This document shows, piece after piece, positions 1-15,751 of a DNA stretch of 55,576 nucleotides. The DNA is taken from IMG/VR virus record IMGVR_UViG_3300025601_000022, positions 1 through 55,576 of that record, one strand, 5' to 3'. Under the pieces are notes generated by a model, which made no database searches, was not told where the DNA came from, and saw only the letters and a program-made list of their open reading frames with translations. Position 1 is the stretch's first letter; each line of letters begins with the position of its first letter. The translations under genes were made by a program, and so were the position numbers. This stretch comes from a virus (taxonomy: Duplodnaviria > Caudoviricetes).

Positions 1-1
1 G

Positions 2-124
2 TGCCCAGAGAATAATAAAGCGCAGGCGTTCGGATTAATCACAACCGAAGGATCGGCATGTAGTAGGTGCCGCCTATGTGTGTTCGGCAAGGCTGACATA
101 GTATTCAGCGCGACTAAAAAATAG
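2..124 (+). CDS. 3' end of a Cys-rich protein (GP88-like C-terminus), truncated by the window start
   Basis: Frame 2 reads CPENNKAQAFGLITTEGSACSRCRLCVFGKADIVFSATKK*. The CP...CxxCxLC...IxF ending resembles actinophage GP88-family proteins. Confidence 0.55.
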   Translation, partial: CPENNKAQAFGLITTEGSACSRCRLCVFGKADIVFSATKK

Positions 125-164
125 TTTAGGCAGAGGGACTGCCACCAAATGACGGGAGTACGAA

Positions 165-407
165 ATGAAAGTAAAAGATTTAATTCAGCAACTTAACGAC
201 CACTACAAACCGGAGGACGATATCTTCTTGATTTCTTGGGACAAGACCTTCGGAGCCGGTATGACAGAAGACGGCGTGCTAAGCGATGAGCAATGGGAAA
301 CCGCTGTTGCACTTATGGAGTTTAGAGAGCACAGAGATATGGAAAACGTAAACGGAGAGATGACAGAACTAATCCGTGAGAGAGTAAACGAAGCACTAGA
401 GGACTGA
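165..407 (+). CDS. hypothetical protein (80 aa)
   Basis: ORF with RBS GACGGGAG upstream and an MKVKDLIQQL start typical of small phage proteins. Confidence 0.75.
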   Translation: MKVKDLIQQLNDHYKPEDDIFLISWDKTFGAGMTEDGVLSDEQWETAVALMEFREHRDMENVNGEMTELIRERVNEALED

Positions 408-436
408 GATGTTTCTTAGTAGCACGAGTTAGAAGG

Positions 437-465
437 TTGACAACCGCCAGAAAAAATGTAATAAT
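437..465 (+). promoter_or_regulatory. sigma-70/SigA promoter
   Basis: TTGACA-17-AATAAT with an extended TG, preceded by the motif at 415. Confidence 0.7.
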
Positions 466-470
466 AGAAC

Positions 471-521
471 TTGTACGGCGAGGGTATGCGACCCCTAACG
501 ACTCGCTCCTTCGCCGTACAA
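471..521 (+). ncRNA. 5' leader hairpin with CCCCU loop
   Basis: 14-bp stem TTGTACGGCGAGGG/CCTTCGCCGTACAA plus GCGA/TCGC, loop CCCCTAACGAC, starting at the predicted TSS. Confidence 0.5.
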
Positions 522-555
522 CCAAATGACATTACACTAAGACGGGAGCAAGACA

Positions 556-1050
556 ATGGGTTTAGATCAGTACTTGAGAGTAAGTAAGAACTTCGGCTCG
601 TATATCAACGACACCGAATCCGCTTCATACGACGCAATTATGGCGGCGGCAGGGCTGGATAAGATCGGTAATTCGAACAGCAAATATGTCACAGTAGAAG
701 TAACCGCACTCTACTGGCGCAAGGCAAACGCGATCCACGGCTGGTTTGTCAACGAACTGGCAGGCGGCGAGGACGAGTGCCAAGTAATTCCGGTAACCCG
801 TGAAAATATAACTACGTTGCGCGATCTTTGCGTAGACGCTATGAGTGTTCCAGCAGGTATGTCTCTTGATACTCATGCGCGTACGGTGCTTCCCCCATCC
901 GATGGGTTCTTCTTCGGTGGGTCAGAAATTGACGATTACTATATTCAAGATCTGAAGGACACAATCGAAGGTATAGACCGTATCCTCGAAGAACTTCCAG
1001 AAACCGGCGAGGGCTGGGACTGGAGTTTGACATATCAAGCATCGTGGTGA
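556..1050 (+). CDS. conserved phage protein (MGLDxY...YWRKANAIHGWF family)
   Basis: Recognisable widespread phage motif. RBS GACGGGAG. Confidence 0.85.
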   Translation: MGLDQYLRVSKNFGSYINDTESASYDAIMAAAGLDKIGNSNSKYVTVEVTALYWRKANAIHGWFVNELAGGEDECQVIPVTRENITTLRDLCVDAMSVPAGMSLDTHARTVLPPSDGFFFGGSEIDDYYIQDLKDTIEGIDRILEELPETGEGWDWSLTYQASW

Positions 1051-1056
1051 CACGGC

Positions 1057-1085
1057 TTGACAACGGGCAACCGATTCGGTAGCCT
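1057..1085 (+). promoter_or_regulatory. sigma-70/SigA promoter driving the 6C-like RNA
   Basis: TTGACA-17-TAGCCT. Confidence 0.7.
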
Positions 1086-1090
1086 CTAAT

Positions 1091-1170
1091 CTTGTTGGTA
1101 GAGAACCCCCCTTCTCCCAACAACGAGTCCCGTCAGAGTTCTCCCCCGTCCTCTGGCGGGACTCACCTTT
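1091..1170 (+). ncRNA. 6C-like small RNA (two hairpins with C-rich loops)
   Basis: Stem 1 TTGTTGG..GAGAA/TTCTC-CCAACAA with loop CCCCCC. Stem 2 is 14 bp, GAGTCCCGTCAGAG/CTCTGGCGGGACTC, with loop TTCTCCCCCGTC, then CCTTT. It has its own promoter. Confidence 0.65.
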
Positions 1171-1229
1171 CTTAGTAGCACGAAAAAACAAACGACAAAA
1201 CGACAAAAACTAGAAACCAGGAGTAGACA

Positions 1230-1373
1230 ATGCCAATCTTTATCGAAGTTGAAGACACGGACGGCACGATCTTCGAGTGGGTAACAGACAGCGAAACTTT
1301 AGACAAATTGCGCGGCCATCTTGGAAAACCGCAAAATGTCTACTCTTTAGTAGCAAGTGATCTCGCGGCTTGA
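1230..1373 (+). CDS. small hypothetical protein (47 aa)
   Basis: AGGAG RBS then MPIFIEVEDTDGTIFEW...; below the ORF-track cutoff. Confidence 0.6.
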   Translation: MPIFIEVEDTDGTIFEWVTDSETLDKLRGHLGKPQNVYSLVASDLAA

Positions 1374-1398
1374 CCGCGTGAAAGTAAACCTCTATAAT
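1370..1398 (+). promoter_or_regulatory. sigma-70/SigA promoter
   Basis: TTGACC-17-TATAAT. Confidence 0.8.
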
Positions 1399-1429
1399 AG
1401 GTAAACACCTACAAGAGATGGAGAACAAA

Positions 1430-2092
1430 ATGCCAAACTGGGTTCATAACAGCCTAAACATTACCGGAGACAAAGAGCAGATCACGCGCCTAGTCGCGCA
1501 GGTATCTGCCCCCTACACCACAAAAGGTTCTGAGTGGGCAGACGGCAAGATGATTGCGGTAGATGCCGTAGTCACAGATCAAGATTTCTCATTCTGGAAT
1601 ATCTCACGGCCTGAAGGCGAGGACTTGGGTAAGTACAACGAGTCTATGGAAGGTCGCGCAGGCGCACATCCGTTCTGGTACGGCTGGAACAACACCCACT
1701 GGAATACTAAGTGGGAAGCCTGTGATGCTACAAGTGAAGTAACTCACGGAGAGAAGGAGAGTCAGGCTTCCTACCACTTCCAAACGGCGTGGAGTCCACC
1801 AACTATCGTACTTGCTAAGTTGGCAGAGCAATACCCAACGCTAAACATGACACTCTTCTGGGAAGAAGAGCAGGGTTTCGGTGAGGACTTAGAGATTACG
1901 GGCGGGGAGATTGTCGTCAATGATTCGTGGGATATCCCAGAGACACATGAGGACACAATGAAACGGCGCGACTACTGCTATTGCGAAGATGCAGAAGATC
2001 AAGATGATATTCCGTTTGATGATTGCCCGACTAAGTTTGATCCGAATATGATAATTGACAAAAACGAAATAGAAATGGAGGCACTAATATGA
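1430..2092 (+). CDS. DUF1281/YubB-like ferredoxin-fold protein
   Basis: MPNW..N start, WYGW...WNTKW, FxTAWSPP and YPxL motifs. Start moved to MPNW after GGAG. Confidence 0.8.
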   Translation: MPNWVHNSLNITGDKEQITRLVAQVSAPYTTKGSEWADGKMIAVDAVVTDQDFSFWNISRPEGEDLGKYNESMEGRAGAHPFWYGWNNTHWNTKWEACDATSEVTHGEKESQASYHFQTAWSPPTIVLAKLAEQYPTLNMTLFWEEEQGFGEDLEITGGEIVVNDSWDIPETHEDTMKRRDYCYCEDAEDQDDIPFDDCPTKFDPNMIIDKNEIEMEALI

Positions 2093-2322
2093 GTAACGTG
2101 ACATCACTTACTTACTTCGCAACTGACGGGAACTACGGGAATGCAGGAGGTCTCACCGTTGTAGATACGTCTGCATGGACAGACCTTGACTTCGAGTTGC
2201 TAGATGGCGTGACAGATGAGTTGCGCCCTACTGCCGGTCGAACGATCTCCGATTGGATTGAGGGTGGTCGAACAGATGACTACAATACTTACTTCCAGAA
2301 ATTGGGAATAGATATTCCTTAG
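2089..2322 (+). CDS. hypothetical protein (YFAxDGNYG motif)
   Basis: Overlapping start/stop with the previous gene; GGAGG RBS. Confidence 0.75.
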   Translation: MSNVTSLTYFATDGNYGNAGGLTVVDTSAWTDLDFELLDGVTDELRPTAGRTISDWIEGGRTDDYNTYFQKLGIDIP

Positions 2323-2426
2323 TAGCACGATTTATATGATCGTCCCTGCCGTGAGGTGGGGACTTTCGTATTTAGTAGCAAAGTTGCGTATCTACTTAGT
2401 AGCAACACGCAAACTTCGATATAGAT

Positions 2427-2455
2427 TTGACAAGTACTCGAATAACCTGTAAGTT
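2427..2455 (+). promoter_or_regulatory. sigma-70/SigA promoter
   Basis: TTGACA-17-TAAGTT downstream of a terminator hairpin (2342-2366) and two motif copies. Confidence 0.65.
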
Positions 2456-2500
2456 TGCTCTTGTAAGGAAAACACCTACTAAACGACAGAAGGAAATAAA

Positions 2501-2992
2501 ATGGACGTTACTAAGTCAGTTCAGGGGATCGCCGTTTATGGCGAGTTTGTACGCCCCGGCACCACCACGCAGGTTATTGTTACTCCTGACGGACGCAACA
2601 CAGCAGGCGACAAGGTTCAGATGCACATTGTGCGCCGAACAATCAGCCTATCTACACCACGCAAGCAATGGCGTTTCAGCACACTATCTACCACTGACCC
2701 AATTACAACCTACGCAGGGTCAAACGTAGACGCTCTAAAAGAGATCTACTGCGACAATCGCATGAGGTACGCCTCGTCATTGTTCGAGCAACTGGCACGC
2801 GGAGATTGGTTCTTAGTAGCAGATCCAATTCTGGTTGAGGTCTCCAAAATGGATATGGATCATATCTCCATAAACAAGACACCTACCAAATTGCTTTATC
2901 GCATCACGCAATCCCGTCTAATGATTCCGGGATATCCAACTGACGTTGTAAATGAAGAAATAACCACAACACCTACACTTGCCACTATTTAG
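2501..2992 (+). CDS. hypothetical protein (163 aa)
   Basis: ORF with AAGGA RBS; first gene of the AAA/VWA operon. Confidence 0.8.
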   Translation: MDVTKSVQGIAVYGEFVRPGTTTQVIVTPDGRNTAGDKVQMHIVRRTISLSTPRKQWRFSTLSTTDPITTYAGSNVDALKEIYCDNRMRYASSLFEQLARGDWFLVADPILVEVSKMDMDHISINKTPTKLLYRITQSRLMIPGYPTDVVNEEITTTPTLATI

Positions 2993-3017
2993 TAGCAACG
3001 AGCCGAAGGATAAAAAA

Positions 3018-4058
3018 ATGTTATCAGAAAAGTTTGCAAATATCGGATCAGTCTCAGAGCCAACAAAGTTCTGGAGCATGGTTGTCGAAGTCGCTGCACA
3101 AATGGACGTACCAGAGTCTGCTATGAAATTGTCATCAGAGGTATTGCCACAGGGTCGGTACGTCGAACGTGCTGCAAATGGGACACGCAAGCCAAAGACT
3201 CCAAAGGCACTTCCCACCGTTGAGTCATTAGATGCAGATACCGAATATCTGCGACCTAATGGAATGATCTATCACACCCGCGAATGGGGAGAGCATGGAG
3301 ATGTCGCTGCCCTACGCAAGGCGCGTGAAGTTACGGCGCAAGCCTTCACAGAAAGTTCCGGCTCTCCAATGTTCTCGCTGCTCTACGGCGCACCCGGCTG
3401 CGGAAAGACTGCACTAGTTGAGGCTGCTTTCGGTGATAATATCTACACGATCTTGGGGACTGGCGATACCGAAGTGGCAGACATGATCGGTGGATATATT
3501 CAGACACCTAGTGGTGGCTTCGAGTGGTTGGACGGCGATCTCTTAAAGGCTGCCGAAACTGGTGGAGTCTACTTCATAGATGAGGTCGGACTCATTGATC
3601 CGAAGGTTCTCTCCATTGTGTACGGACTCATGGACGGACGGCGCGAGATCACTGTCACCGCAAACCCAGAGCGAGGCACAGTCAAGGCTCACCCAGAGTT
3701 CTATGTAATCGCTGCTACTAACCCAAACGCACCCGGCGTTCGGTTGTCAGAGGCTTTGCTGTCGCGGTTCACTATTCAGGCAGAGATGACAACAGATTGG
3801 AGTCTGTCACGCAAACTAGGCGTAAGCACCACTATGGTGACGGCTGCACAGAATCTAGCCAAGAAGCAAGCGAGCCACGAAGTTTCATGGTCTCCACAAA
3901 TGCGCGAACTACTGGCCTTCCGCGATATATCCGTATCGTTCGGAGTCCCGTTCGCCATATCAAACCTACTCGCTGCTGCACCCGAAATTGACCGCCCAGT
4001 CGTCGCTGACGTACTGACGCGAGCGTTCGGTAGTGAGTGCAAGCCTGCCAAGATCTAA
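3018..4058 (+). CDS. MoxR/CbbQ/CobS-type AAA+ ATPase
   Basis: Walker A GAPGCGKT, Walker B YFIDE, AATNP sensor, ALLSRF arginine finger. Start placed after AAGGA. Confidence 0.92.
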   Translation: MLSEKFANIGSVSEPTKFWSMVVEVAAQMDVPESAMKLSSEVLPQGRYVERAANGTRKPKTPKALPTVESLDADTEYLRPNGMIYHTREWGEHGDVAALRKAREVTAQAFTESSGSPMFSLLYGAPGCGKTALVEAAFGDNIYTILGTGDTEVADMIGGYIQTPSGGFEWLDGDLLKAAETGGVYFIDEVGLIDPKVLSIVYGLMDGRREITVTANPERGTVKAHPEFYVIAATNPNAPGVRLSEALLSRFTIQAEMTTDWSLSRKLGVSTTMVTAAQNLAKKQASHEVSWSPQMRELLAFRDISVSFGVPFAISNLLAAAPEIDRPVVADVLTRAFGSECKPAKI

Positions 4059-4177
4059 TCCTTCGATCTGGCAGATCGGGGGAGTCGGTGTAGGTGCTGA
4101 CTCCCCCACCCTTCCATTCTTAGTAGCATGGTGATACGCTTTCCATAAGTAATCGGACACTAAACAAAGGACACAAA

Positions 4178-5989
4178 ATGGGACACTACAAAATTGACGG
4201 AACACGCGCAGAGATGACAGACCCTAAGTGGTTGAGAGTTGGCAGTCAGGTTGGCGCACTCGCAAATGAGTGGTCAGATCGGTCAGACATTATTGCCTAC
4301 GTTGGATCTGGTGCTGGTGGAGAAGCCCCTGCATGTTTCATACCTGCAAGCGCAGAGGTTGAGGTGAACGTAGACGTTGCTTTCGGTTATGGCGTAGAGC
4401 CTGCCGACATTGACTTGACTACGCGGTCAGGACGCTACGAGTTTCCACGCGCTGTCGGTGCGATCTTGCACGAAGCCTTTCATGCAAAGTTCTCAAAGTG
4501 GGATCTACTAGAGGCACGAAAAGATCTAAAGAAAGATGAGTTTGAGGCTTTGATGCTGCTAGAGGAAAGTCGGATCGAAGCACACGGTATTCGGTCGAAT
4601 CCAAAAGCAAAGCCTTTCCTTGAGACTTGCGCTATGGAAATTGTTATCGCAGACGCTGGCGAACAGTTTGCAGAGATGAGTAGCACAGAGAAGGCTGCCC
4701 TACTGGTCGCATTAGTTTGGGCGCGTGTTGATCTTGGGATTCTAAAGTTTCGAGATGTCGCAAAAGTTACGGACTTGATTGACGAATACTTAGGGCTAGA
4801 TGTGATTGCAGAGTTGCGCGATCTTGCTACTAAGGCACAGAGGCATGGCTATCATTATGACGCTACCGATATGTACCCGATTGCGATTGAGTGGGCAAAG
4901 ATTGTGCGCGAGGTAGCAGAGGAAAAAGGCGAAGGTTCCCCGGACTCTGGCGAAGGCAAAGGCGAAGGCGAAGGCGAAGGCGAAGGCGAAGGCGAAGGCA
5001 ACGAGTTTATGGAAGATCTTATGGACGCATTAAACGAGGCTGCCGACAACGTATCCGTTAGTAACAGTGACTCACTTGGCGACGCGGAGACAATGGAAAA
5101 GTATGAAGAAGTTGTCAAAGAAAAGTCAGACAAATCCAAAGAGAGAAAAGATGCCAAAGAAATGGCGAGCAAAATCTTTGGATCTGGTACGGCAGAAGTT
5201 GTTGGAGCCGGAACATTCTCTACGTTGAAAGAGACCCGAAATCCACGGTCAGATGAACGGATCGCTGCAACAATTATTGCTACTAAGTTGGAGAAGGCAA
5301 AGTACCGCGACCGTGATGTGACCAAGGTGTCAAGCATTACTCCACCCGGACGGCTTCGCGCACGAACAGCGGTTCAAGGTGCTGCCATGAAATCGCGCGG
5401 AGTGATGACACAACCAGAGGCATGGCGCAAGAAGGTTCGCAAACAAACGGACGAACCCACATTGACTATCGGAGTCATGGTGGATATCTCCGGCTCAATG
5501 GGCGACGCTATGGAGCCAATGGCAACTACGGCATATGTCTTGAGCGAGGCTGCCGTCCGTGTTCAGGGCAAGGCTGCAATGGTCTACTACGGCAACACGG
5601 TATTCCCCACACTTCGACCCGGCGAGCGCATGGATCAGGTCAAGGTCTATACCGCTTCCGACGCAACCGAAAAGTTTAATGACGCTTTCCTTGCTCTTGA
5701 CGGTTCGATCAACCTGCTAAACGGCGAGGGTGCAAGACTGCTGGTAGTTGTTAGTGACGGTCACTATGTCAGGGACGAGGCGGTCGCTGCCCAACGCTGG
5801 GTCAAGCGGTGCGCTGAACAGGGCGTGGCGGTTGTATGGCTACCGTTTGACGAAGGTTCAACGGCTAGGGCATTGGCTGGTGACAACGCGGTCGTACTAT
5901 CCGGCAGGTTTAGCCCAACGGCTGCTGCCGACAAGATCGGTGCTGCATGTGAAAAAGCGATCTCAAGCGCAACGGCGCGCAAGATGTAG
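4178..5989 (+). CDS. CobT-like protein: N-terminal HEXXH zincin domain plus C-terminal VWA domain
   Basis: HEAFH and downstream EExRIE; MIDAS DISGSM and VVSDG; GE-repeat linker (GGCGAA tandem at 4949-4999); adjacent to the MoxR ATPase. Confidence 0.9.
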   Translation: MGHYKIDGTRAEMTDPKWLRVGSQVGALANEWSDRSDIIAYVGSGAGGEAPACFIPASAEVEVNVDVAFGYGVEPADIDLTTRSGRYEFPRAVGAILHEAFHAKFSKWDLLEARKDLKKDEFEALMLLEESRIEAHGIRSNPKAKPFLETCAMEIVIADAGEQFAEMSSTEKAALLVALVWARVDLGILKFRDVAKVTDLIDEYLGLDVIAELRDLATKAQRHGYHYDATDMYPIAIEWAKIVREVAEEKGEGSPDSGEGKGEGEGEGEGEGEGNEFMEDLMDALNEAADNVSVSNSDSLGDAETMEKYEEVVKEKSDKSKERKDAKEMASKIFGSGTAEVVGAGTFSTLKETRNPRSDERIAATIIATKLEKAKYRDRDVTKVSSITPPGRLRARTAVQGAAMKSRGVMTQPEAWRKKVRKQTDEPTLTIGVMVDISGSMGDAMEPMATTAYVLSEAAVRVQGKAAMVYYGNTVFPTLRPGERMDQVKVYTASDATEKFNDAFLALDGSINLLNGEGARLLVVVSDGHYVRDEAVAAQRWVKRCAEQGVAVVWLPFDEGSTARALAGDNAVVLSGRFSPTAAADKIGAACEKAISSATARKM

Positions 5990-6124
5990 CGCGTGCTACT
6001 AAGAAGGTTGTCCCCTTCGTGTCCGGCACGCGCACAAAGTCACCCCCCATGTTTAGGCGTGGGGGGTTTGACTTGTCTGACGTTAGTAGCACGACACGGC
6101 GCGCGATCAAGTTTCGATAACGGC

Positions 6125-6153
6125 TTGCATGTTGGACTCTACTTTGCTAAACT
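6125..6153 (+). promoter_or_regulatory. sigma-70/SigA promoter
   Basis: TTGCAT-17-TAAACT with an extended TG. Confidence 0.7.
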
Positions 6154-6196
6154 GAACACATCACGGACAGCCCGTGGTGATGAGCAAGGAGTCCAC

Positions 6197-6589
6197 ATGG
6201 CTATACGCAAAACGAACAAGGGAACCGTATCGGTATCCCATAAGGGCGCGCTGGTTGCAACCGGCGAGGTAGCCGAAGCAGTAGCAGTAATCAGCAACAT
6301 GCGTGCTACTAAGAAGCAATGCACGAACAAAGAAAAGACCGCCAAGGATCTAGTGGAGCAGGCTGCTGGGAACCGCGCTCGAATTATCCTCAATGAGGAC
6401 GGGGACGTAATTTGCGAGATCATCAAAGTTGTTGCCGAAACAACTAAACTTGATGACTTCATCATCGAACTAGAACGGCTGTACCCAAAAGAGTGGGCGG
6501 TACTCATGGACTCCGACCCCAGGGCGATCGAACTGACCAAGGTCGCTGCTACTAAAGAGGGAGTGAGTTACAGAGTTATGCCGAAGTAA
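6197..6589 (+). CDS. hypothetical protein (130 aa), paralog of 10149-10541
   Basis: AAGGAG RBS. MAIRKTNKGTVSVSHKGA aligns end to end with the second copy. Confidence 0.85.
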   Translation: MAIRKTNKGTVSVSHKGALVATGEVAEAVAVISNMRATKKQCTNKEKTAKDLVEQAAGNRARIILNEDGDVICEIIKVVAETTKLDDFIIELERLYPKEWAVLMDSDPRAIELTKVAATKEGVSYRVMPK

Positions 6590-6722
6590 TCGGAGCGTGA
6601 GGGGATCCCCAATCGGGATCCTCTCACAATCGGTTAGTAGCACGACACGGCGCGCAGGGGGCAGGCTTGCATTGTCGGTCAGAACTGATAAACTGGACAC
6701 ACCACCTACGAAAGGACACCAG

Positions 6723-6956
6723 ATGACAACAATCTTGAATCCACAAAGCAGTCGGATACGGTTATTCGTTTCCATGCAAGCACTGGACATGTATCTAAAG
6801 AGCAACGGGGCGATGGAACTCACTCGCAACGGATCACGAAACGCGGTTGCGATTATCGAGGAAGCAACCGGCAAGACATACAAGCGGTCAATGAAAGGCA
6901 AGCGCGAAGCACTAACGGACGTTAAGGACTTGCTGGGCGAGGGGATATCATCATGA
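6723..6956 (+). CDS. hypothetical protein (77 aa)
   Basis: AAAGGA RBS; promoter TTGCAT-16-TAAACT at 6667-6694; terminator hairpin at 6597-6627 upstream. Confidence 0.75.
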   Translation: MTTILNPQSSRIRLFVSMQALDMYLKSNGAMELTRNGSRNAVAIIEEATGKTYKRSMKGKREALTDVKDLLGEGISS

Positions 6957-7342
6957 GTCGCAGGTACGAAACAACAAAGACCGACCTAGACAACTATCGG
7001 TTAATCACGGACAAAGTGCGCGAGGATCTGCGCGAGGAGTTTGGTTTAGTTGCTACTAAGTATGACGGCGTAGAGGTGCTAACAATTAGAGGAGACCTAG
7101 GCGTATGCACAGAGTGCCTACGGAAAGACCGCGCAGAATCTGAAACAGACGTCTCCACAGTCGTCTACAACTTGATTGTGCCGGTGCAAGAGGATCACGG
7201 CGTGGACTGGACAGAAGGCGAGACAGTCTGTGATGAGTGCGGTGAGATTAGTTGGTGTTCAACAATGGACGAACTTGATGAGTCCAACCGTCAAGATGCA
7301 GGCGAGGCGCGCTACGAACAGATGAAAGATGAGGGGTGGTGA
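6953..7342 (+). CDS. hypothetical Zn-binding protein (two CxxC pairs)
   Basis: CTEC and CDEC motifs; coupled ATGA overlap; AGGGGA RBS. Confidence 0.75.
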   Translation: MSRRYETTKTDLDNYRLITDKVREDLREEFGLVATKYDGVEVLTIRGDLGVCTECLRKDRAESETDVSTVVYNLIVPVQEDHGVDWTEGETVCDECGEISWCSTMDELDESNRQDAGEARYEQMKDEGW

Positions 7343-7473
7343 ACACGGTGACTCTCACGGAGAAGGGAGAAAACGTGCTACTAAGAGTATGGGCAACCGT
7401 CAAGCTGACGGGCGCGATAGGTGGGATCCTTGCGATCATGTTGGTTGCAGGCGCGATAGAAGTGGGTGGTTGA
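7339..7473 (+). CDS. small membrane protein (44 aa)
   Basis: GTGA overlap; hydrophobic C-terminal stretch. Confidence 0.55.
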   Translation: MNTVTLTEKGENVLLRVWATVKLTGAIGGILAIMLVAGAIEVGG

Positions 7474-7474
7474 A

Positions 7475-7747
7475 ATGAACGGATATGCAGTTGCTACTAA
7501 GAGAGTGAACTTCGAGATCGAGAACGGATCCGAAGTCTGGGAGATCATGATGCAGGTCATGAGTGACGGAATGACGTTTGTATTCGCAGAAACAGAATAT
7601 GAATCGCCATTCGGAGTACAGCGCGACATTCACGACGGACTGGACTTCGATACCGCGCCGACAGTTGCAGACATTCTGATGCGGATAGACGCGGAGCGCG
7701 AGAATCTATGGGATCAAGAGCAAGAGAAATCCCAAGCACCTGATTAG
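7475..7747 (+). CDS. hypothetical protein
   Basis: ORF directly follows the previous stop; ends before a hairpin at 7758-7779. Confidence 0.7.
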   Translation: MNGYAVATKRVNFEIENGSEVWEIMMQVMSDGMTFVFAETEYESPFGVQRDIHDGLDFDTAPTVADILMRIDAERENLWDQEQEKSQAPD

Positions 7748-7843
7748 TAGCACGACAGGGGAAGGAGAAATCCTTCCCCGTTGCGCCGGTCGCTCAGAAA
7801 AAATGTTTTTTCTGGACAGACCTTTCTTTTTTTTTGCTTAGGC

Positions 7844-7872
7844 TTGCACTTAGTGTCGAGTTCGCGTATTCT
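7844..7872 (+). promoter_or_regulatory. sigma-70/SigA promoter with the motif over the TSS
   Basis: TTGCAC-17-TATTCT immediately followed by CTTAGTAGCAC. Confidence 0.75.
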
Positions 7873-7914
7873 CTTAGTAGCACAAACAATCACCTACAAC
7901 GAAGGAGAGACATC

Positions 7915-8220
7915 ATGGCACTAAGTTACGCGGGCATTAAGGGCAAGATCTCCGAGCGCGAAATCTTTACCGGCAACAGCATGACTGCCGAGTACGTCCA
8001 GAATGAATACGCCTCATTAGGGCGACTCCCAACCCATGACGCAAGCGTCCTACGCGCCGACATTCAACGCGCAAAAGACAATGCTGACAGCGTTTATGTA
8101 ATCTATTCGTATGCCACGCCGATTGCATGGGCATACGGTGACACGGTGCGCGTACCAGAGGTTAAGTACAGCGTTACCACGTCGAAGCAACAGAGTCTAG
8201 TGCGCGGATACCTAAGGTAG
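7915..8220 (+). CDS. conserved small phage protein (YSYxTPIA...YSVTTSK motif)
   Basis: Widespread phage motif; AAGGAG RBS. Confidence 0.8.
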   Translation: MALSYAGIKGKISEREIFTGNSMTAEYVQNEYASLGRLPTHDASVLRADIQRAKDNADSVYVIYSYATPIAWAYGDTVRVPEVKYSVTTSKQQSLVRGYLR

Positions 8221-8485
8221 ACTTGCATCATGGCTAATCGTGCTACTAAGAAGGACAGGGGGCGCACCTTGTACGGGGTAGGTGCGCCCGGAAACTTCGC
8301 GCTCAATACTCACGCGCCACGCTTTGCCGACAGGCGCACGAAACGAAACAGATCACGCGCCGAAATCGAGCGCAAAGCAGTTAATGAGTCTAAGTCTAGT
8401 TAGTAGCAGGCAGTCTTGCACTTGTCAGAGAGTACTGATACGCTGGATACATACCGCAAAGCGCGGTCAAGATAGGGGACATCAG

Positions 8486-8686
8486 ATGAGCATCACTCAA
8501 GCACAGAACACGGCGATTGTTTCCGCTGGTTTCACGGTAACTAATTTCAAGAGTCCTGCCATAATGTGCGCGACTCAGCCACTGGAAACATTTAGCGCAC
8601 CTGACTGGCACTCACTCGCTCTTTACGCGATAAAGTTTCAACTGTGCGAGTGCGAGAACCACCAACCAATTACATTGTGCTACTAA
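8486..8686 (+). CDS. hypothetical protein (66 aa)
   Basis: Promoter TTGCAC-17-TACGCT (8416-8444); RBS ATAGGGGACATC. Confidence 0.65.
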   Translation: MSITQAQNTAIVSAGFTVTNFKSPAIMCATQPLETFSAPDWHSLALYAIKFQLCECENHQPITLCY

Positions 8687-8700
8687 GAAAGAGGGACATC

Positions 8701-8946
8701 ATGAGCATAAAATTTTCTGAGACAGAATATGCAGTTTGCCTAGATTGCGTCATGTCTGCTGCTGGATACGACGCGCACGAATTAGGCTGTGAGCCAGAGC
8801 ATGAGCCACTGTCAAAGTTTGCAGGCGATACGACCACCACAATTATTCCGACAAACACGGATCTGGGTTTCTCGAATAAGGGCTGCCAAGGTTGCGAGGA
8901 CAAACTAGCAGGCAATCGCTACGCGATAACGCTGCTAGATATTTAA
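8701..8946 (+). CDS. small Zn-finger-like protein
   Basis: CLDC ... FSxxxCQGC...LAGxR; RBS GAGGGA. Confidence 0.7.
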   Translation: MSIKFSETEYAVCLDCVMSAAGYDAHELGCEPEHEPLSKFAGDTTTTIIPTNTDLGFSNKGCQGCEDKLAGNRYAITLLDI

Positions 8947-8974
8947 TCATGCTACTAAGAGAAGGGGAAACGAA

Positions 8975-9178
8975 ATGACTTGCCTACAAGACCACACGGA
9001 CAAATGTAAGGGAACAGTGGAATACCGCGAATCTCTGTCAGGTACGGGTGTAGAGATTGCAAGATGCGAGAATCACTGGGGCGAAGCACTAGAGCGCGAC
9101 GAGCAGATCAGACTACGTTATCCACGCAACGCGCCAAGTGACTTTGATCCTTCGTACGCTGGTGAGTCATGGGAGTGA
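8975..9178 (+). CDS. small Cys/His actinophage protein
   Basis: CxGxVEYR..LSGTG...RCxxH and a PSDFDPSYAGExW ending; AAGGGG RBS. Confidence 0.75.
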   Translation: MTCLQDHTDKCKGTVEYRESLSGTGVEIARCENHWGEALERDEQIRLRYPRNAPSDFDPSYAGESWE

Positions 9179-9255
9179 ACGAAATTATTAAGTAGCAGGA
9201 GAAAGTTGCGACCAGAAAAAATGTTTTTTCTGAAGTGCCAAGTTATTCGCCAGAC

Positions 9256-9284
9256 TTGCATAATCACTAAAGTTAATGTATTCT
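9256..9284 (+). promoter_or_regulatory. sigma-70/SigA promoter with the motif over the TSS
   Basis: TTGCAT-17-TATTCT followed by CTTAGTAGCAC. Confidence 0.75.
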
Positions 9285-9338
9285 CTTAGTAGCACAAAAT
9301 GATCAGCGAAATACGCGGATCGAAAGGGGCGGGGAGAT

Positions 9339-9548
9339 ATGCCAAAGCAAGGGACAGTCACAGTAGTTTCAGTCCGACCATTCTGTGACTTTGGGTGCGG
9401 ATCAGAAGCAAAGATTGACGGGCGCACGACTATGGGTGCGTGGGCGAACATGTGCCTAGATCATTGGATCTCATACGGCTGCGGGAAATTGGGCGTGGGG
9501 CACGGTCAAAAGTTAGCACTTGCCCCTAAGAATGAAGGGGGCGAGTGA
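9339..9548 (+). CDS. small Zn-binding phage protein
   Basis: CDFGC..DGRT..GAWANMC..H..G.G.LG.G.GQ, a widespread phage motif. Confidence 0.8.
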   Translation: MPKQGTVTVVSVRPFCDFGCGSEAKIDGRTTMGAWANMCLDHWISYGCGKLGVGHGQKLALAPKNEGGE

Positions 9549-9549
9549 T

Positions 9550-9888
9550 ATGGCATTCGACATGAGTCTGGACTACGCCAATGGGACATGTTTACAGGGG
9601 CGCATAGACATAACTAGAGCGCGTATCGAAGAGGTGTTTGGCGCACCTCTGTACGACAGCACCGACAATGACGAAAAAGTCATGACAGAGTGGGGCATCA
9701 TGTTTGATGATGGAACATGCGCGACTATCTATGACTGGAAACGCTACGAAATGGGCGCGGTTGGATTCCATGAAGTTTATGACTGGCACATAGGTGGAAC
9801 TAGCCATGATGCTATGGATAAGGTTACAGCGGTGCTACTAAAGAGAGGGGGTGAGCGAGATGACTGGAGTTACATTAACAATTCATGA
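9550..9888 (+). CDS. conserved phage protein (EW..ATIYDWK..WHIGG)
   Basis: Recognisable motif; AAGGGGG RBS. Confidence 0.8.
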   Translation: MAFDMSLDYANGTCLQGRIDITRARIEEVFGAPLYDSTDNDEKVMTEWGIMFDDGTCATIYDWKRYEMGAVGFHEVYDWHIGGTSHDAMDKVTAVLLKRGGERDDWSYINNS

Positions 9889-10024
9889 TCAGGCTAAGGG
9901 GATTGCTCCGACACAAACTTTCACGTTTGAGTGCCATAGTCCCAAAAGACTGGCAGAGATTGTTCAGGGCACGTTCGACAACATGCCAGAGAGTGCGCGG
10001 ATTACGCAGATTTATGTGGACTAA
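9860..10024 (+). CDS. small hypothetical protein (54 aa)
   Basis: GAGGGGGTGA RBS; MTGVTLTIHDQAKG... Confidence 0.55.
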   Translation: MTGVTLTIHDQAKGIAPTQTFTFECHSPKRLAEIVQGTFDNMPESARITQIYVD

Positions 10025-10148
10025 TTAGATCTACTTAGTAGCACGACAAACACGCGGAACCTAATTTAGGTTTAGGCTTGCACATGTCAGTCACTTAGTG
10101 TATTGTTCTACTTATACGGAAAGCCCGTACAAAAGTGAAGGGGTCAAG

Positions 10149-10541
10149 ATGACTATCAAAAAGACAAACAAGGGCACGGTTAGCGTTTCGCACCGTGGCG
10201 CAGTAGTGGCAGACAGCGCACTTATCGCTGCTATCGCTCAAGTGAGTAACATGCGTGCTACTAAGAGAGAGTGCACTAAGGCTGAGGACGCTGCCAAGGT
10301 TGCAATCAAAGTTGCCACGGGAGATCGTGCGCGCCTTATCCTCAATGTCGAGGGAGACATCATCTGTGAAGTCAAAGAAGTTGCAACAACTAGCGTGAGC
10401 GTAGATGGGTTTCTCGAAGCACTAGAGGGACTCTACCCCGACATCTGGGCAACGCTCATGGACAGAGATCCCAAAGCAGTTGAGACCGCTAAGACCGCTG
10501 CTACCAAGCATGACACCTACCTTAAGGTGTTGCCTAAGTAA
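10149..10541 (+). CDS. hypothetical protein (130 aa), paralog of 6197-6589
   Basis: Promoter TTGCAC-17-TATTGT (10078-10106), AAGGGG RBS and terminator hairpin at 10551-10577. Confidence 0.85.
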   Translation: MTIKKTNKGTVSVSHRGAVVADSALIAAIAQVSNMRATKRECTKAEDAAKVAIKVATGDRARLILNVEGDIICEVKEVATTSVSVDGFLEALEGLYPDIWATLMDRDPKAVETAKTAATKHDTYLKVLPK

Positions 10542-10897
10542 TTAGGACTCGGAGAGGGGGACACGCGCCCCCTCTCCACACCATAACAGTGTGCTACTAA
10601 GAGAGAGACATCATGACAACAGACAAAGCAAAGACGATTACAGGGGTAGTCCTATCCTTGGCCATAGTTGGGACGCTGATAGGCATGGTTATGTCCATGC
10701 AAAGTCACGGACTACTTTGGTAGCACGCGAAAAATAGAGGGGAGTCGCGGAGATTCGTGGCTCCCGTTTAGTTTCGAGGAACCAGAAAAAATGTTTTTTC
10801 TGACATCCCCGCCGCGCGGTCAGACTTGACAGATAATTATTTTCATGATGTAATTTATCTATCACTCCAAGGGGGGTGATCAATGAAAGGACACAGC

Positions 10898-11272
10898 ATG
10901 AGGGCATTGACAGTGAACGCAGAGACATTAGAAACAACTCTGATTGACCTGCCACGCGAGGGCGGGCTGGCACAATTACAGCGCGAGGTCGGCGGATATA
11001 TCGAAGCGGTACGGTTAGAAGAGTTTGATTTCTATCTCAATGAAGAGGGCAAGATGATTGGCCTACCTCTCAATGAAGTGGGCACGCTGCTTTGGGAGAG
11101 CGTATATGGTCAGACCGACGTGATCATGGGTAATATCGTTGTCGTAGGTAAGCCTGATGATGAGGGCTACGAAACAGAGTTAAGTTTAGAGAGCGCGCAA
11201 GAGATTCAGAATATCGCCATTACGTTGCAAGTCACGCGGTTTGGTAATGCGCTTATGGCGCGCGGTAACTAA
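10898..11272 (+). CDS. DUF3846-domain protein
   Basis: LQxxVGGYIE...YLNEEGK..GLPLN...IxGN motif; TTGACA promoter at 10826. Confidence 0.8.
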   Translation: MRALTVNAETLETTLIDLPREGGLAQLQREVGGYIEAVRLEEFDFYLNEEGKMIGLPLNEVGTLLWESVYGQTDVIMGNIVVVGKPDDEGYETELSLESAQEIQNIAITLQVTRFGNALMARGN

Positions 11273-11441
11273 TCCTAGTCAAGGGGAGAGAGTGCATGTC
11301 TGACATTCTCTCCCCCTACACTTTAGTAGCACGATTTATATGCTACTAAGAAAGACACGCAAAGATTGCTCTCAGTTTGCATATGTCAGTGCATTGTGAT
11401 ATTGTTACACCACAAGCACAAACGAGCGAGAGGGGCACAAA

Positions 11442-11624
11442 ATGAGGTTCATGCCAGATAGCGCGATACTCGGAACCATAGGCCACGCAAAGCGTCGCTC
11501 AGCAAAGAGTAAGGCTCGCGCACGTCGCGCATCACGCAACCAACGCCCATTGACAGGCGTGGACATCATTGGCGGTATCGCCCTCATGTTCGGATTCATA
11601 TTGTTCGTAGCACTATTCGTTTAA
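11442..11624 (+). CDS. small basic membrane protein
   Basis: Arg-rich N-terminus with a C-terminal TM helix; promoter TTGCAT-17-TATTGT (11377-11405); AGGGG RBS. Confidence 0.65.
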   Translation: MRFMPDSAILGTIGHAKRRSAKSKARARRASRNQRPLTGVDIIGGIALMFGFILFVALFV

Positions 11625-11650
11625 TCGTGCTACTAAGAGAAGGGGAGATC

Positions 11651-11767
11651 ATGACAACACAGACACAGACACTTTGCAAGGATTGCAATATGTATCCTGC
11701 GATTCAGATTCAGCCGGAATACACAGAGCGTTGCCGGCACTGCCACAATAAATTGTGGAAGAAATAA
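11651..11767 (+). CDS. 38-aa Zn-finger peptide
   Basis: AAGGGGAG RBS; CKDC...CRHC. Confidence 0.55.
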   Translation: MTTQTQTLCKDCNMYPAIQIQPEYTERCRHCHNKLWKK

Positions 11768-12246
11768 TCATGCTACTAAGAGGGAGCACGATTGCGTTTA
11801 AGTGCGTAGAGTGTTTGCGGACGTGGACAGTATTTGATGACGCTCAAGAATGGGCGTATGGTCACGATTGCGAAGGGGGGTGATCGTGGAGATAGCCCAA
11901 GCGGTACTTGCGGGGATTCTAATGGGATTCGGCGCGGGGATCATATTCATTCGACGATGCTACTAAGAGAGAGAGACAGGCAAAATGTGTGTTTGACTTG
12001 CAATTGTCAGATGACTAATGTAGACTAAAGACATGCCAACACGGGCACAGAGATAGGGGACATCATGGCACCGGCTCAAGATTACGTGGAGACCTGCGGA
12101 TACTGCACCAATGAGTATCTTTACTCAAACCTACGCACCAATAATGAGGGGGACGCAATTTGCCCCCCCTGTCGGAAAGAGGGGGAGTGAGCGAGATGAT
12201 TTATGTTCCCATTATTCATGCTACTAAGAGAGAGAGTGACAAAGAG

Positions 12247-12519
12247 ATGACAACACCATTGATATTTATCACAGATCCTGGACATGGTTGGTTAGAGGTA
12301 GACTTAGCAGAATTCCCAGAAGCATTTGATTGTGGGACAGGATACGGATACATAGACGAAGCGCGCGGAAAGATATACCTCGAAGAGGATACAGAGCTTT
12401 GGGCATTCTTGAAGACTCACCCAGAGATTAACGACCGCATTACAGAGAAGGTGTGGGCAGACAGAGACGCACCATTGCGAAACCTGCCAAGGAACGAGGC
12501 CAGACTTGTGAGGGCGTAG
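12247..12519 (+). CDS. conserved phage protein (DPGHGWL...YLEED)
   Basis: Recognisable motif family. Confidence 0.8.
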   Translation: MTTPLIFITDPGHGWLEVDLAEFPEAFDCGTGYGYIDEARGKIYLEEDTELWAFLKTHPEINDRITEKVWADRDAPLRNLPRNEARLVRA

Positions 12520-12721
12520 GTATTAGTAGCGAGGGGGCGTGGCGAGAGTCGCGCCCCTAAGTTGCCGCCAGCTTAGAAAAAATGTTTTTTCTGAGAGCCA
12601 CGATACGCGGTCAGATTTGCAATTAAATATATTGTAAAGTAAAGTAAGGTAAAGTTAAATAGACAGCCACGCAGGTGCTCGCCACCTACGCTACTAAGAG
12701 ATAGAGGGAATACTAATAATA

Positions 12722-13297
12722 ATGAAAACTAAACGAAAGTCTTATCTACCAGTAGAGGTAGCAGACGCCTTTAATAAGATCTCAGGTGAACCACAATCTT
12801 TGCGAGACTCCTACATGCTACGTCTAGTAATGAATGGATGGACGCATAACTCTGTTGCAGTCGCTGCTGGAGATCTCTCACGTGAGCGAGTACGTCAGTG
12901 CGTGCATCCAAGTGTTTCTGACACTAATCCTTATTGGGACTATGTAACTACTCATGGCATTGACTCTCTCCCAGTCCCAGACTTACCAGATCGCATTGAA
13001 AAGCCTAGGGCTGCCCCAAGACCTATGCCTAGTGACGAAACTCTGGCACGACTAAGAGAACTAAAGCCACTCGCTGCGGAGGTACGATTTAATCACAGCC
13101 ACAACAGAGCAGAGGCTGAAGAGTATGTCGGGTTAATTTGGCACGCGCATACCGTAGAAGGCGTAAGTGTGTACCGTTTAGGAAAGTTGCTAGACGTGCT
13201 GCCTTGCGGTATCGAGAGTCGTCTAGTGCGTTATGGGTACAAGAAAACCAATGGTGGATCTGAAGCCTTTAGTCCGATTAAGTATCGGAAAGTCTAA
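12722..13297 (+). CDS. dual helix-turn-helix DNA-binding protein
   Basis: N-terminal HTH (GWTHNSVAVAAGDLSRERVRQ, sigma region-4-like), Pro-rich linker, second HTH (GVSVYRLGKLLDV). Promoter TTGCAA-17-TAAAGT at 12617-12645. Confidence 0.75.
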   Translation: MKTKRKSYLPVEVADAFNKISGEPQSLRDSYMLRLVMNGWTHNSVAVAAGDLSRERVRQCVHPSVSDTNPYWDYVTTHGIDSLPVPDLPDRIEKPRAAPRPMPSDETLARLRELKPLAAEVRFNHSHNRAEAEEYVGLIWHAHTVEGVSVYRLGKLLDVLPCGIESRLVRYGYKKTNGGSEAFSPIKYRKV

Positions 13298-13350
13298 GAT
13301 CATATTGTGTAGTGAAGTGGAGTGCTACTAAGTAGTAGCACGACACTCAC

Positions 13351-13423
13351 GCCCTCGTAGTTCAACGGACAGAATAACCGGCTTCTACCCGGTAGGTTGG
13401 GGGTTCGATTCCCTCCGAGGGCA
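13351..13423 (+). tRNA. tRNA-Arg (anticodon UCU, reads AGA)
   Basis: Acceptor stem GCCCTCG/CGAGGGC, D-arm GTTC/GAAT, anticodon arm ACCGG-CTTCTAC-CCGGT, T-loop TTCGATT. CCA is not encoded. Confidence 0.95.
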
Positions 13424-13426
13424 CAC

Positions 13427-13455
13427 TTGACAAACAAAGTAATGTCATATATTAT
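13427..13455 (+). promoter_or_regulatory. sigma-70/SigA promoter
   Basis: TTGACA-17-TATTAT. Confidence 0.8.
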
Positions 13456-13659
13456 TGTACTAACAACACAACAACTAAGGAGTGAGTCACATGATTTAAG
13501 TAAAGGAGTGAGGGTGGGGATACTCCAAAACCGCCAGCCAAAGGGACATAATCCCCTAGGCACAGAACACAGATAGGGGACAATAAGTTCACGGTAGTGG
13601 GAGGTGCAGAAGAACCCTCCCTCTACTGCTTGCTACTAACTACAAGAAGGGGTAAGACA

Positions 13660-13947
13660 ATGAGACTTCAAATGAACAGCGCAGAAGAGTTAGGACTCAT
13701 GCTCAGTCAAGATGAGGTAAGCGTACTTGCTACGGCATTAGGTGGGCTGCTAAGCACACTAAACCATGAGATCGAAGAGATCGGAGATACCGCAAAGGAA
13801 GATCAAAGTAATCTTATGATGATGCTCTCCATGAAAATGGATACGGAGATAATGTTTCTCAGTCTTTGGACGGCTCTAGGATTGGGCGAGGAAAAACTTG
13901 CCATGCTACTAAAGACAACACAGATAGGTGAGGGGGAGAGTGAGTGA
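13660..13947 (+). CDS. hypothetical protein
   Basis: AAGGGG RBS; helical, acidic sequence. Confidence 0.7.
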   Translation: MRLQMNSAEELGLMLSQDEVSVLATALGGLLSTLNHEIEEIGDTAKEDQSNLMMMLSMKMDTEIMFLSLWTALGLGEEKLAMLLKTTQIGEGESE

Positions 13948-13948
13948 A

Positions 13949-14116
13949 ATGAGAAAGTTTAATAAAGAAAATTATGGTGAAGACTTCTACGGTGTAATAA
14001 CCCACTGTGAGGTGAGGGTTAATTGGATCAACTGCCCTCTCCATAACAAAACAGGTTGCAAGGGAACGGTTTGTGCGATTTGTAGAGTAACCGACTTCGA
14101 TTGTGAAGGTGAGTGA
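13949..14116 (+). CDS. small Cys-rich protein
   Basis: Several Cys/His pairs; GGGGGAG upstream. Confidence 0.55.
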   Translation: MRKFNKENYGEDFYGVITHCEVRVNWINCPLHNKTGCKGTVCAICRVTDFDCEGE

Positions 14117-14117
14117 A

Positions 14118-14339
14118 ATGGTAGATCGCATAGAAAGTACGAAAACGGTCATGTTTGTAGGTGACTACTTTGCGCTGACAACTACGGTCATACTAGATGA
14201 GGGGCTACGTTACGAGGACGAAGAGGACGAGGACTTTGCCATAAGGATTGCCACCGTATTCCTATCAGAGCATTACGGGTTTGATGACATAGATGAAAAG
14301 TCCAATCAGATAGGTATCGTGGACGAGGACATGCCATAG
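14118..14339 (+). CDS. acidic hypothetical protein
   Basis: AAGGTGAG RBS; ORF track. Confidence 0.7.
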   Translation: MVDRIESTKTVMFVGDYFALTTTVILDEGLRYEDEEDEDFAIRIATVFLSEHYGFDDIDEKSNQIGIVDEDMP

Positions 14340-14357
14340 ATGCGGTACACTTTGACT

Positions 14358-14463
14358 TCTAAGTAGTAGCATGTAATCCCCTTTCCGTGCTCCTTAGATG
14401 TGGGAACCCCTTACCCACGAAGGCTGGCCTCTGGATACTTCCCAGAGGTCAGCCGTCTTTATT
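14358..14463 (+). ncRNA. three-hairpin small RNA with CCCCUU loops
   Basis: -10 TACACT at 14346. Hairpins: TCTAAG..AGCATG/CGTGCT..CTTAGA (loop TAATCCCCTTTC), GTGGG/CCCAC (loop AACCCCTTA), and a 13-bp GGCTGGCCTCTGG/CCAGAGGTCAGCC followed by a T-rich tail. Confidence 0.55.
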
Positions 14464-14525
14464 GTGGATGTGGAGCTGAGAAAAAACGTTTTTTCTATGA
14501 TACAGATTGGATGTACGCTATTCAC

Positions 14526-14786
14526 ATGTCTAACATCGAGATCGTTCAGAGTTCCTTTCACAGTAATGGTCACGCTGCCCCCTTCTACGCGGCAATAGTC
14601 GATGACCCAGACACAGGAGAAACAAAGATCGTCATTATGTTCGATGAGCCTGAATACACAGCCGTACTATCGTTGGATGCGCTACTTAATGACGAGGACA
14701 TTTCTCATGACAAGCATAATTCGAGAGGAGATATCTACGATTCTAAGTTGAGAGATGTTTTGTGGTATCCGGAGTCCGGGTCATAG
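14526..14786 (+). CDS. hypothetical protein, probably leaderless
   Basis: TACGCT -10 lies 6 nt before the ATG; FHxNG..AAPFY motif. Confidence 0.7.
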   Translation: MSNIEIVQSSFHSNGHAAPFYAAIVDDPDTGETKIVIMFDEPEYTAVLSLDALLNDEDISHDKHNSRGDIYDSKLRDVLWYPESGS

Positions 14787-14787
14787 G

Positions 14788-15345
14788 GTGACAACCATTA
14801 TTGGAGTTCAAGGATCTTCATGGGCTGTTATGGGCGCTGACTCACAGGTGAGTGAGGAGTCAAAAAAATTTCGATTGCCATCATCGTTTAGTAAGTTGAT
14901 TTCTAATGGTGAGTTTCTCATAGGGACAGCAGGAGATGTTCGCGCCGTCAATATTCTTACCCATACATTCGTGCCACCGATTGTAGGGAAGATCCCAGAT
15001 GAGGGGCTGGATAAGTTTATGGTATCCCGTTTTGTTCCTGCTCTCAAAGTTTGCTTTGATAATAATTTCTATGGCAAAGACAACGAGCATGACTCAGTAT
15101 TTATTGTTGCAGTTCGCGGGGTGTTATATGAAGTAGGGGGAGGCTATGAATGTATTCGAGATGATACGGGGTTATATTCGGTAGGTAGTGGATCCTCATA
15201 CGCATTAGGCGCGTTGCATGTCTTAAACAAGAAGCCCAGGACATTAAGCGGTGCTAAGGTTATGATCAAAGAGGCATTGCAAGCGGCAAGCAGATACGAT
15301 ACAGGTACATCGGATCCAGTTACTATTATCGTACAAAGATATTAG
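14788..15345 (+). CDS. proteasome beta/HslV-like Ntn-hydrolase protease
   Basis: GTG start gives (M)TTIIG with a catalytic N-terminal Thr; ADSQ, conserved K, GTAG and SVGSGSSYALGAL. Confidence 0.9.
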   Translation: MTTIIGVQGSSWAVMGADSQVSEESKKFRLPSSFSKLISNGEFLIGTAGDVRAVNILTHTFVPPIVGKIPDEGLDKFMVSRFVPALKVCFDNNFYGKDNEHDSVFIVAVRGVLYEVGGGYECIRDDTGLYSVGSGSSYALGALHVLNKKPRTLSGAKVMIKEALQAASRYDTGTSDPVTIIVQRY

Positions 15346-15357
15346 TAGCAGTCTCGG

Positions 15358-15480
15358 TTACTTGCCGTTGCGTTTGGTTGGCCTGAGGCAAACAATCTCC
15401 AAGAATATGCTCAGGATCGCTGCGCCTAGCGCAAAGGCTCCCAAACCTATTCCTACGGTTATTGCGTAGTCCCATGTCAT
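15358..15480 (-). CDS. 40-aa single-TM peptide
   Basis: MTWDYAITVGIGLGAFALGAAILSIFLEIVCLRPTKRNGK on the opposite strand. Confidence 0.4.
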   Translation of the reverse strand: MTWDYAITVGIGLGAFALGAAILSIFLEIVCLRPTKRNGK

Positions 15481-15589
15481 GTGACCTATCATGACAGGAG
15501 TATATGACACTTTAAGCGTGGTGCGCTAGGTATTATCGTTTGGATAGTGTAGGATAGTGCTAACACAACGACAACACATAGGGGACACC

Positions 15590-15742
15590 ATGAAAGATGT
15601 ACGATTGACACTCAGAGGCAAGATTGTATTGGCTATGGCATTGCTAGGGCTAGTGAGTGCTGCTATCTACGCCGTTACACCAGAGGAATGCAGGTCGGGC
15701 GAGAGTCGTCAAAGTGCCTACTGTGCGGAATATCTACGCTAG
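15590..15742 (+). CDS. small membrane/secreted protein
   Basis: ATAGGGGAC RBS; RLTxRG followed by a TM segment and two Cys. Confidence 0.65.
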   Translation: MKDVRLTLRGKIVLAMALLGLVSAAIYAVTPEECRSGESRQSAYCAEYLR

Positions 15743-15751
15743 GATGAGATC

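Follow-up and report, generated by a model that had tools for sequence, protein, structure and literature searches.

Does an actinophage carry its own version of 6C, to our knowledge one of very few small RNAs (sRNAs) that are widely conserved among the Actinobacteria? The question is raised by a promoter and two adjacent hairpins with C-rich loops near the start of an IMG/VR virus fragment of 55,576 bases (the window, by which we mean this whole stretch of DNA). An initial annotation had read the locus as a phage-encoded 6C-like RNA directed at host mRNAs or at the phage's own genes with G-rich ribosome-binding sites (RBSs). We know of phage regulatory RNAs almost only from enterobacteria and, if this reading were true, the element would be the first phage copy of a conserved actinobacterial sRNA used for host takeover.

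The window and its early region

The window, whose completeness is estimated at 38%, encodes a major capsid protein with 76% identity to that of the metagenome-assembled Actinomycetia phage DSL-LC01, with Microbacterium, Arthrobacter and Gordonia phages more distant; on the basis of these matches we assign it to an actinophage. Sequencing runs labelled as salt lake metagenome contain DNA near-identical to it, and none of the runs listed with it is an RNA run. Small genes on the plus strand form a block at positions 1–16,000, which takes in a DUF1281_C protein gene (1418–2092) and an AAA_5 ATPase gene (2979–4058) and in which a promoter scan found three strong sigma-70-like promoters, at 437, 1370 and 13427. 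The element lies in this early region among hypothetical genes and not beside Ms1/6S. Searches of GenBank phages at the DNA level, for near as well as for distant relatives, gave no match to the element region, and the proteins flanking it are without close relatives among the same phages. Elsewhere in the window, a tRNA gene (13351–13423, 67.8 bits) has counterparts near the same early genes in three other loci (L001, L005 and L158), and a single 3,770-aa open reading frame (ORF; 24354–35666) occupies the interval between the portal region and the capsid gene.

A promoter-like sequence followed by two adjacent hairpins

The promoter reported in the initial annotation is present on the plus strand: a −35 hexamer TTGACA (1057–1062) is followed, after a 17-nt spacer, by the −10-like hexamer TAGCCT (1080–1085). 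This hexamer is of the TANNNT type, the actinobacterial −10 form, but it is a weak one; because it agrees with TATAAT at 3 of 6 positions, the 1057 promoter is absent from the list of the consensus scanner. As judged by eye, TTGACA with a 17-nt spacer and a TANNNT-like or similar hexamer also occurs in the related loci L001 and L158, at an unchanged distance to hairpin 1, and L142 has TGgTAGCGT instead.

Reading of the sequence and RNA folding delimit a two-hairpin element at 1089–1172 (plus strand). Hairpin 1 (1092–1123) has 12 pairs and the loop CCCCCC (1106–1111), hairpin 2 (1125–1164) carries the loop TTCTCCCCCGTC (1139–1150) on a 14-bp stem, and one unpaired base, C1124, separates them. 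Folding of 1088–1175 reproduced exactly these two hairpins, with the loops first described, at −39.6 kcal/mol (z −8.34), and none of 200 shuffles was as stable. After hairpin 2 the sequence continues as ACCTTTCTT, with a short, pyrimidine-rich tail, ACCTTTC (1165–1171), that amounts to a weak U-tract. The short T-run noted initially is there, but it is interrupted and weak; the terminator scan listed nothing at the element, which has fewer than the 5 or more U in 8 required of an intrinsic terminator. Among relatives, the tail is U-poor in L142 and reads CCCTTTTC in L158.

A comparable unit lies just upstream, where a 14-bp 5′-terminal hairpin (471–521, z −3.1) stands between the promoter at 437 (TTGACA-17-AATAAT) and ORF 556–1050; by eye, a longer hairpin with similar arms precedes the homologue of this ORF in L001 (~2830–2975).

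The element is conserved and its stems covary

Related loci were gathered through ORF 556–1050 (6 loci), ORF 1418–2092 (1 locus) and the ATPase (80 loci). A script that looked for two adjacent hairpins with CCCC in both loops returned, from 1.06 Mb of related loci, 11 rows; these reduce to 10 places from 9 sources, every one of them on the gene strand, with the opposite strand yielding none. Within the same 1.06 Mb, R1, a covariance model whose only input sequence was the window, matched L001 at 4151–4242 (56.4 bits, E = 8.5e-11) and L014 at 10656–10733 (28.6 bits, E = 5.8e-4). An 18-nt pattern covering the loop-2 region, applied to metagenome contigs, yielded L142 and L158, which are full members, and L162 and L166, which are partial ones; among the 87 loci fetched by this pattern, a phage-only model (R2) scored the full members at 57.8 and 53.1 bits, respectively. 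Gene-strand placement held for 20 of the 21 R2 matches, and the whole records of L001, L014 and L010 each carry a single copy of the element. The loop GTTCYCCCCCGTCC recurs in L001 (in both hairpins), L142, L158, L162 and L166.

Gene order in L001 and L142 is that of the window (ORF 556 homologue, element, the 9-mer TTAGTAGCA, homologue of a 47-aa ORF, DUF1281_C gene), despite protein identities to the window of 44–61%. In L158 and L014, by contrast with this shared order, a new promoter and other genes lie 3′ of the element, an arrangement that speaks for the RNA having a function of its own. Contigs from four DNA runs show, among the differences listed, strain variants only. Variant contigs in runs X14 and X15 each lack one base at 1138, 1142 and 1150, losses that would remove the apical pair G1138–C1150/1151 and one loop base while keeping the helix.

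The stems vary in the manner expected of a base-paired structure. An alignment of three sequences contains compensatory changes in 18 of 26 pairs, with 97.4% of cells pairing; with seven sequences the count rises to 23 of 26, with 96.0% of cells pairing, which none of 500 shuffles equalled, and sliding the partner by 1–3 columns lowers pairing to 44–58%. Changes on both sides affect 11 of the 12 pairs of hairpin 1 and 12 of the 14 pairs of hairpin 2, the latter with 100% of cells pairing (seven sequences). Fitting these alignments to the model biases them towards the structure, yet they stand well apart from the slid controls; a MAFFT alignment of five candidates, in which the structure was poorly matched, was left out. 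Amid the changing stems the loops keep a consensus: loop 1 reads CCCCC or CCCCCC and loop 2 UUCYCCCCCGUC. A lack of loop conservation in homologues, which the initial annotation had named as refuting its reading, is not what these alignments show, as the loops stay C-rich while the stems covary. The element is a conserved, selected, strand-specific structured two-hairpin RNA.

Beyond phages, the 18-nt loop pattern had 44 matches in 185,579 species genomes, none in a long stem (at most 7 pairs), from which we conclude that no sequenced host carries the hairpin. Many of the 44 are from Actinomycetota; they look like coding coincidences, and none reaches the 6C cut-off. Bases 1–45000 of DSL-LC01 gave only a 12.9-bit match.

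Other hairpins in these phages resemble parts of the element. On the minus strand, window 18063–18132 has two adjacent hairpins without C-rich loops and a weak R2 match (19.4 bits), within a stretch with minus-strand promoter-like sites. Paired hairpins with C-rich loops, some of them with good U-tracts, also occur on the gene strand at L068 10533–10604, L073 11851–11930 and ~9012–9155 of L064, L065, L066 and L069; these are more distant relatives that the covariance models missed. Single long hairpins with a common GCCCUCUCCCC-type loop and differing stems were seen at L046 2104–2180, L057 581–659 and 20598–20676 of DSL-LC01 (L190). A C-rich loop is thus not diagnostic by itself, since single terminator hairpins of these phages commonly have one.

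Relationship to 6C RNA

Of 4,227 Rfam families compared with the element in a 501-nt search, the best match was 6C (RF01066), at 29.5 bits and E = 0.056 over model positions 1–75 of 75. The alignment places both C runs inside loops, giving the two stem-loops with C-rich loops that characterize 6C, and by our own arithmetic (one family, whole window) the score corresponds to E ~ 1.5e-3. The search with the Rfam 6C model proposed in the initial annotation nevertheless ends below the gathering cut-off (29.5 against 47 bits) in the window. Rfam scans of the relatives found no 6C match at E ≤ 10 in L001 (scanned as L088), L142, L162 or the first seven relative loci, and none in L158, which gave only weak matches to sX13 and ar14. 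In sampled Actinomycetota genomes, scanned with insensitive filters, 6C was detected at E ≤ 0.1 in 10 of 121 and above the cut-off in 6, with scores of 44–92 bits.

The converse comparison speaks for a likeness to 6C. R2, although built from phage sequences only, recognized the genuine 6C genes L180, L181 and L182 at 41.0, 39.7 and 35.8 bits, exactly at their Rfam coordinates; other genuine 6C genes scored 18–24 bits, and unrelated sequences in a search of ~1.6 Mb all remained below 35 bits. A model from five phage copies (R3) gave the same three genes 35.4, 33.3 and 32.4 bits, the top three scores in 205 kb that also contained 18 other actinobacterial and phage loci. The synteny of 6C, a chromosomal position near the Ms1/6S gene, was not found for the phage element. 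The proposal of a 6C-like RNA therefore stands as regards design, best Rfam match and reciprocal recognition, and does not as regards the cut-off score and the unmatched relatives. Judged from sequence comparison, the phage element is similar to 6C in design and in part of its sequence while lying outside formal membership of the Rfam family. We read these copies as a phage family of 6C-like small RNAs, for which descent from a host 6C gene and convergence are both possible.

Our literature searches found no report of 6C from a phage, in agreement with the initial annotation. Two genuine 6C genes compared by blastn with GenBank phages gave chance-level partial matches only, one of which led to a hairpin in Gordonia phage Float294 (L194, MZ322022.1). 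It lies at 680–742, in an unannotated gap after the small terminase gene, with the loop CUCCUCCCCCC, and conservation of the region extends to 18 records of Gordonia phages. Against Rfam 6C it scores 36.2 bits (cut-off 47), above the window, and only its second hairpin is 6C-like.

Our preferred reading, to which we give a probability of about one half, is that the element encodes a phage sRNA of ~80 nt with the design of 6C, whose C-rich loops would act against G-rich RBSs and which would also serve as the leader of the 47-aa ORF. Host RNA polymerase would probably transcribe it early from the TTGACA-type promoter, and the transcript is predicted to present its C-rich loops on two neighbouring hairpins, as in actinobacterial 6C.

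The downstream ORF and a 9-mer repeat

The 47-aa ORF of the ORF list (1230–1373, plus strand, AGGAG RBS) matches nothing in Pfam or PHROG, and has a homologue 3′ of the element in L001 (tblastn, 47% identity, E = 1e-5) and, by eye, in L142. The interval 1172–1229 contains no promoter, and the ORF is likewise without one of its own in L001 and L142; it is therefore probably co-transcribed with the element, which would then also be its leader and may be its leader only. Under the preferred reading, hairpin 2 and the weak U-tract would terminate part of the transcripts, and read-through would supply the 5′ leader of the ORF.

The same arrangement allows a purely cis-acting element without trans targets, one that would terminate transcription of ORF 556–1050 and/or stabilize or attenuate the mRNA of the 47-aa ORF at its 5′ end. 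The ORF must be read through the element in the window, L001 and L142; the neighbouring unit is built alike, with the promoter at 437, the hairpin at 471–521 and then an RBS; and in L014, L010, L036 and L029–31 the element or its second hairpin directly follows a gene and is itself followed by a U-rich run, in the manner of a terminator. What a plain terminator or stabilizer would have no need of is the retention of the loops GTTCYCCCCCGTCC and CCCCCC amid changes in 23 of 26 stem pairs. The other terminators of the window have ordinary loops of 4–7 nt, and the downstream context is not constant, L158 and L014 having a new promoter and other genes there. We consider an exclusively cis-acting role doubtful, although more likely than the decoy, antitermination and chance readings discussed below.

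Directly after the element lies one copy (1172–1180, plus strand) of TTAGTAGCA, a 9-mer present 43 times where 0.55 would be expected, in both orientations, with 42 copies at 416–16342 and one at 42345. It also follows the element in L001 and L142, the closest relatives and the only ones in which it is abundant; L158 has CTTGATAGCA at this place. Eight of 19 plus-strand copies are close to a stop codon, at −8 to +25 nt (11% at random), and five overlap the stop; the two copies located at 11323 and 11341 make up a hairpin. We rejected the idea that minus-strand copies mark gene starts (7 of 24 against 25% at random in a crude ORF-distance test). The repeat could be an operator-like or an RNA-processing site.

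Candidate targets of the loops

If the element acts in trans as we favour, its single-stranded C-rich loops would pair with G-rich translation-initiation regions and so reduce translation, of host mRNAs, as for 6C, and/or of phage mRNAs with GACGG(A/G)G RBSs. For the mycobacterial RNA (PMC6486639), the C-rich loops of 6C are reported to bind mRNAs without a chaperone, and its regulon to take in DNA replication and secretion genes.

The initial annotation had also pointed to TCCCGTC (1128–1134) as a complement of the GACGGGA RBS of the two upstream genes. Both sequences are present, but TCCCGTC is the paired 5′ arm of hairpin 2. With loop 2 instead, the GACGGGAG RBSs of ORF 165–407 (151–158, plus strand; ATG at 165) and ORF 556–1050 (541–548, plus strand; ATG at 556) are candidate weak targets, with duplexes of −12.3 and −12.5 kcal/mol that stand at about the 5th percentile of random windows and are thus unremarkable. 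These two sites are the only ones of their kind in the window.

The motif GACGG[AG]G-N3-11-ATG/GTG is densest in L142, L001 and L158, at 0.55–0.88 per kb against at most 0.31 in other loci, and its sites there form loop duplexes of −17.7 to −19.0 kcal/mol; since these three phages and that of the window form one clade, the co-occurrence of motif and RNA counts as one event. An extended RBS motif, GACGGAGG(G)A, recurs before start codons in L001, L142 and L158 (for example, L158 8751, 10585, 11467 and 11792). The best complement of loop 2 in the window, GGACGGGGGGG (38047–38066, −23.7 kcal/mol), lies inside a 1,634-aa ORF. Many early-gene RBSs rank among the best loop duplexes in the window, an enrichment that is unspecific because any C-rich loop pairs with Shine–Dalgarno-like sequence.

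Such breadth of pairing is what a decoy or sponge would display, if the loops mimicked the anti-Shine–Dalgarno end of 16S rRNA or bound a host protein and so shifted translation globally. CUCC and CCCCC in the loops are complementary to GGAG and GGGGG RBSs in general, early-gene RBSs are numerous among the best duplexes, and the weak matches to ar14 and sX13 are to sRNA families with C-rich loops. The conserved GUC/GUCC part of the loop does not resemble an anti-Shine–Dalgarno sequence, and we regard a decoy as unlikely.

In the put RNA of phage HK022, two stem-loops made just 3′ of an early promoter affect RNA polymerase in cis. A put-type RNA would bind RNA polymerase through its stem-loops and let it ignore downstream terminators, and the layout of our locus would suit it, with hairpins one base apart that begin ~7 nt past the −10 of an early promoter and terminator-like hairpins further downstream (for example, 2342–2363). 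No such Rfam family was matched, the members in L014 and L010 stand at gene ends before a new promoter, and the reciprocal matches are to 6C, a trans-acting sRNA; processive antitermination is accordingly a long shot. A functionless pair of chance palindromes, for which only the weak −10 hexamer and the weak U-tract speak, is contradicted by covariation, with compensatory changes, a z of −8.3 and homologues at E values of 1e-9 to 1e-11, and is very improbable.

Implications of a phage-borne 6C-like RNA

A wider form of the sRNA reading, which we put forward tentatively, is that aquatic actinophages carry 6C mimics: expressed immediately from a strong early promoter, such an RNA could enter the host 6C regulon, stall host growth and tune phage genes tagged with GACGGRG. 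A phage-borne 6C-like RNA that selection has kept in phages with proteins of only 45–60% identity would show mimicry of a host regulatory RNA by actinophages, and the element family would provide natural loop and stem variants with which to test chaperone-independent pairing of C-rich loops. The similar hairpin in cultured Gordonia phages suggests a theme that can be tested at the bench.

Comparison with known systems

Base-pairing sRNAs of enterobacterial phages and prophages are likewise phage-borne and are proposed to act on host or phage mRNAs; they belong to phages of E. coli and related bacteria and have neither sequence nor design in common with the element. Closer in form are alphaproteobacterial ar14 and Xanthomonas sX13, hairpin RNAs with C-rich loops that target G-rich RBSs. 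Both belong to another phylum and differ from the phage element in the number and spacing of hairpins, and their scores, 16.8 bits for ar14 in the window (cut-off 58.8) and 20.4 bits for sX13 in L158 (cut-off 50), are low.

Extra copies of 6C on mycobacterial plasmids and chromosomes, as described in the available part of one study (PMC9569102), offer a parallel in being mobile or horizontally moved RNAs with C-rich loops; they were annotated in the manner of Rfam on plasmids and chromosomes, and that part of the study reports none on a phage. Canonical 6C is described as occupying a chromosomal place next to Ms1/6S (PMC6582537), whereas the phage element lies elsewhere. Compared with 6C, the phage element has A/U-richer stems, a longer loop 2 with a conserved GUCC and a weak U-tract followed by a probably co-transcribed small ORF, and it is missing the extra 5′ helix of real 6C loci; in L001, L142 and L158, unlike 6C, both loops are of the loop-2 type. 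What it has in common with 6C (RF01066; B11 in mycobacteria) is a length of ~75–85 nt, adjacent stable hairpins with C runs in their loops (CCCCCC, CUCCCCC) and one to a few bases between them, a pyrimidine/U tail, a putative sigma-70/SigA-type promoter and an actinobacterial setting.
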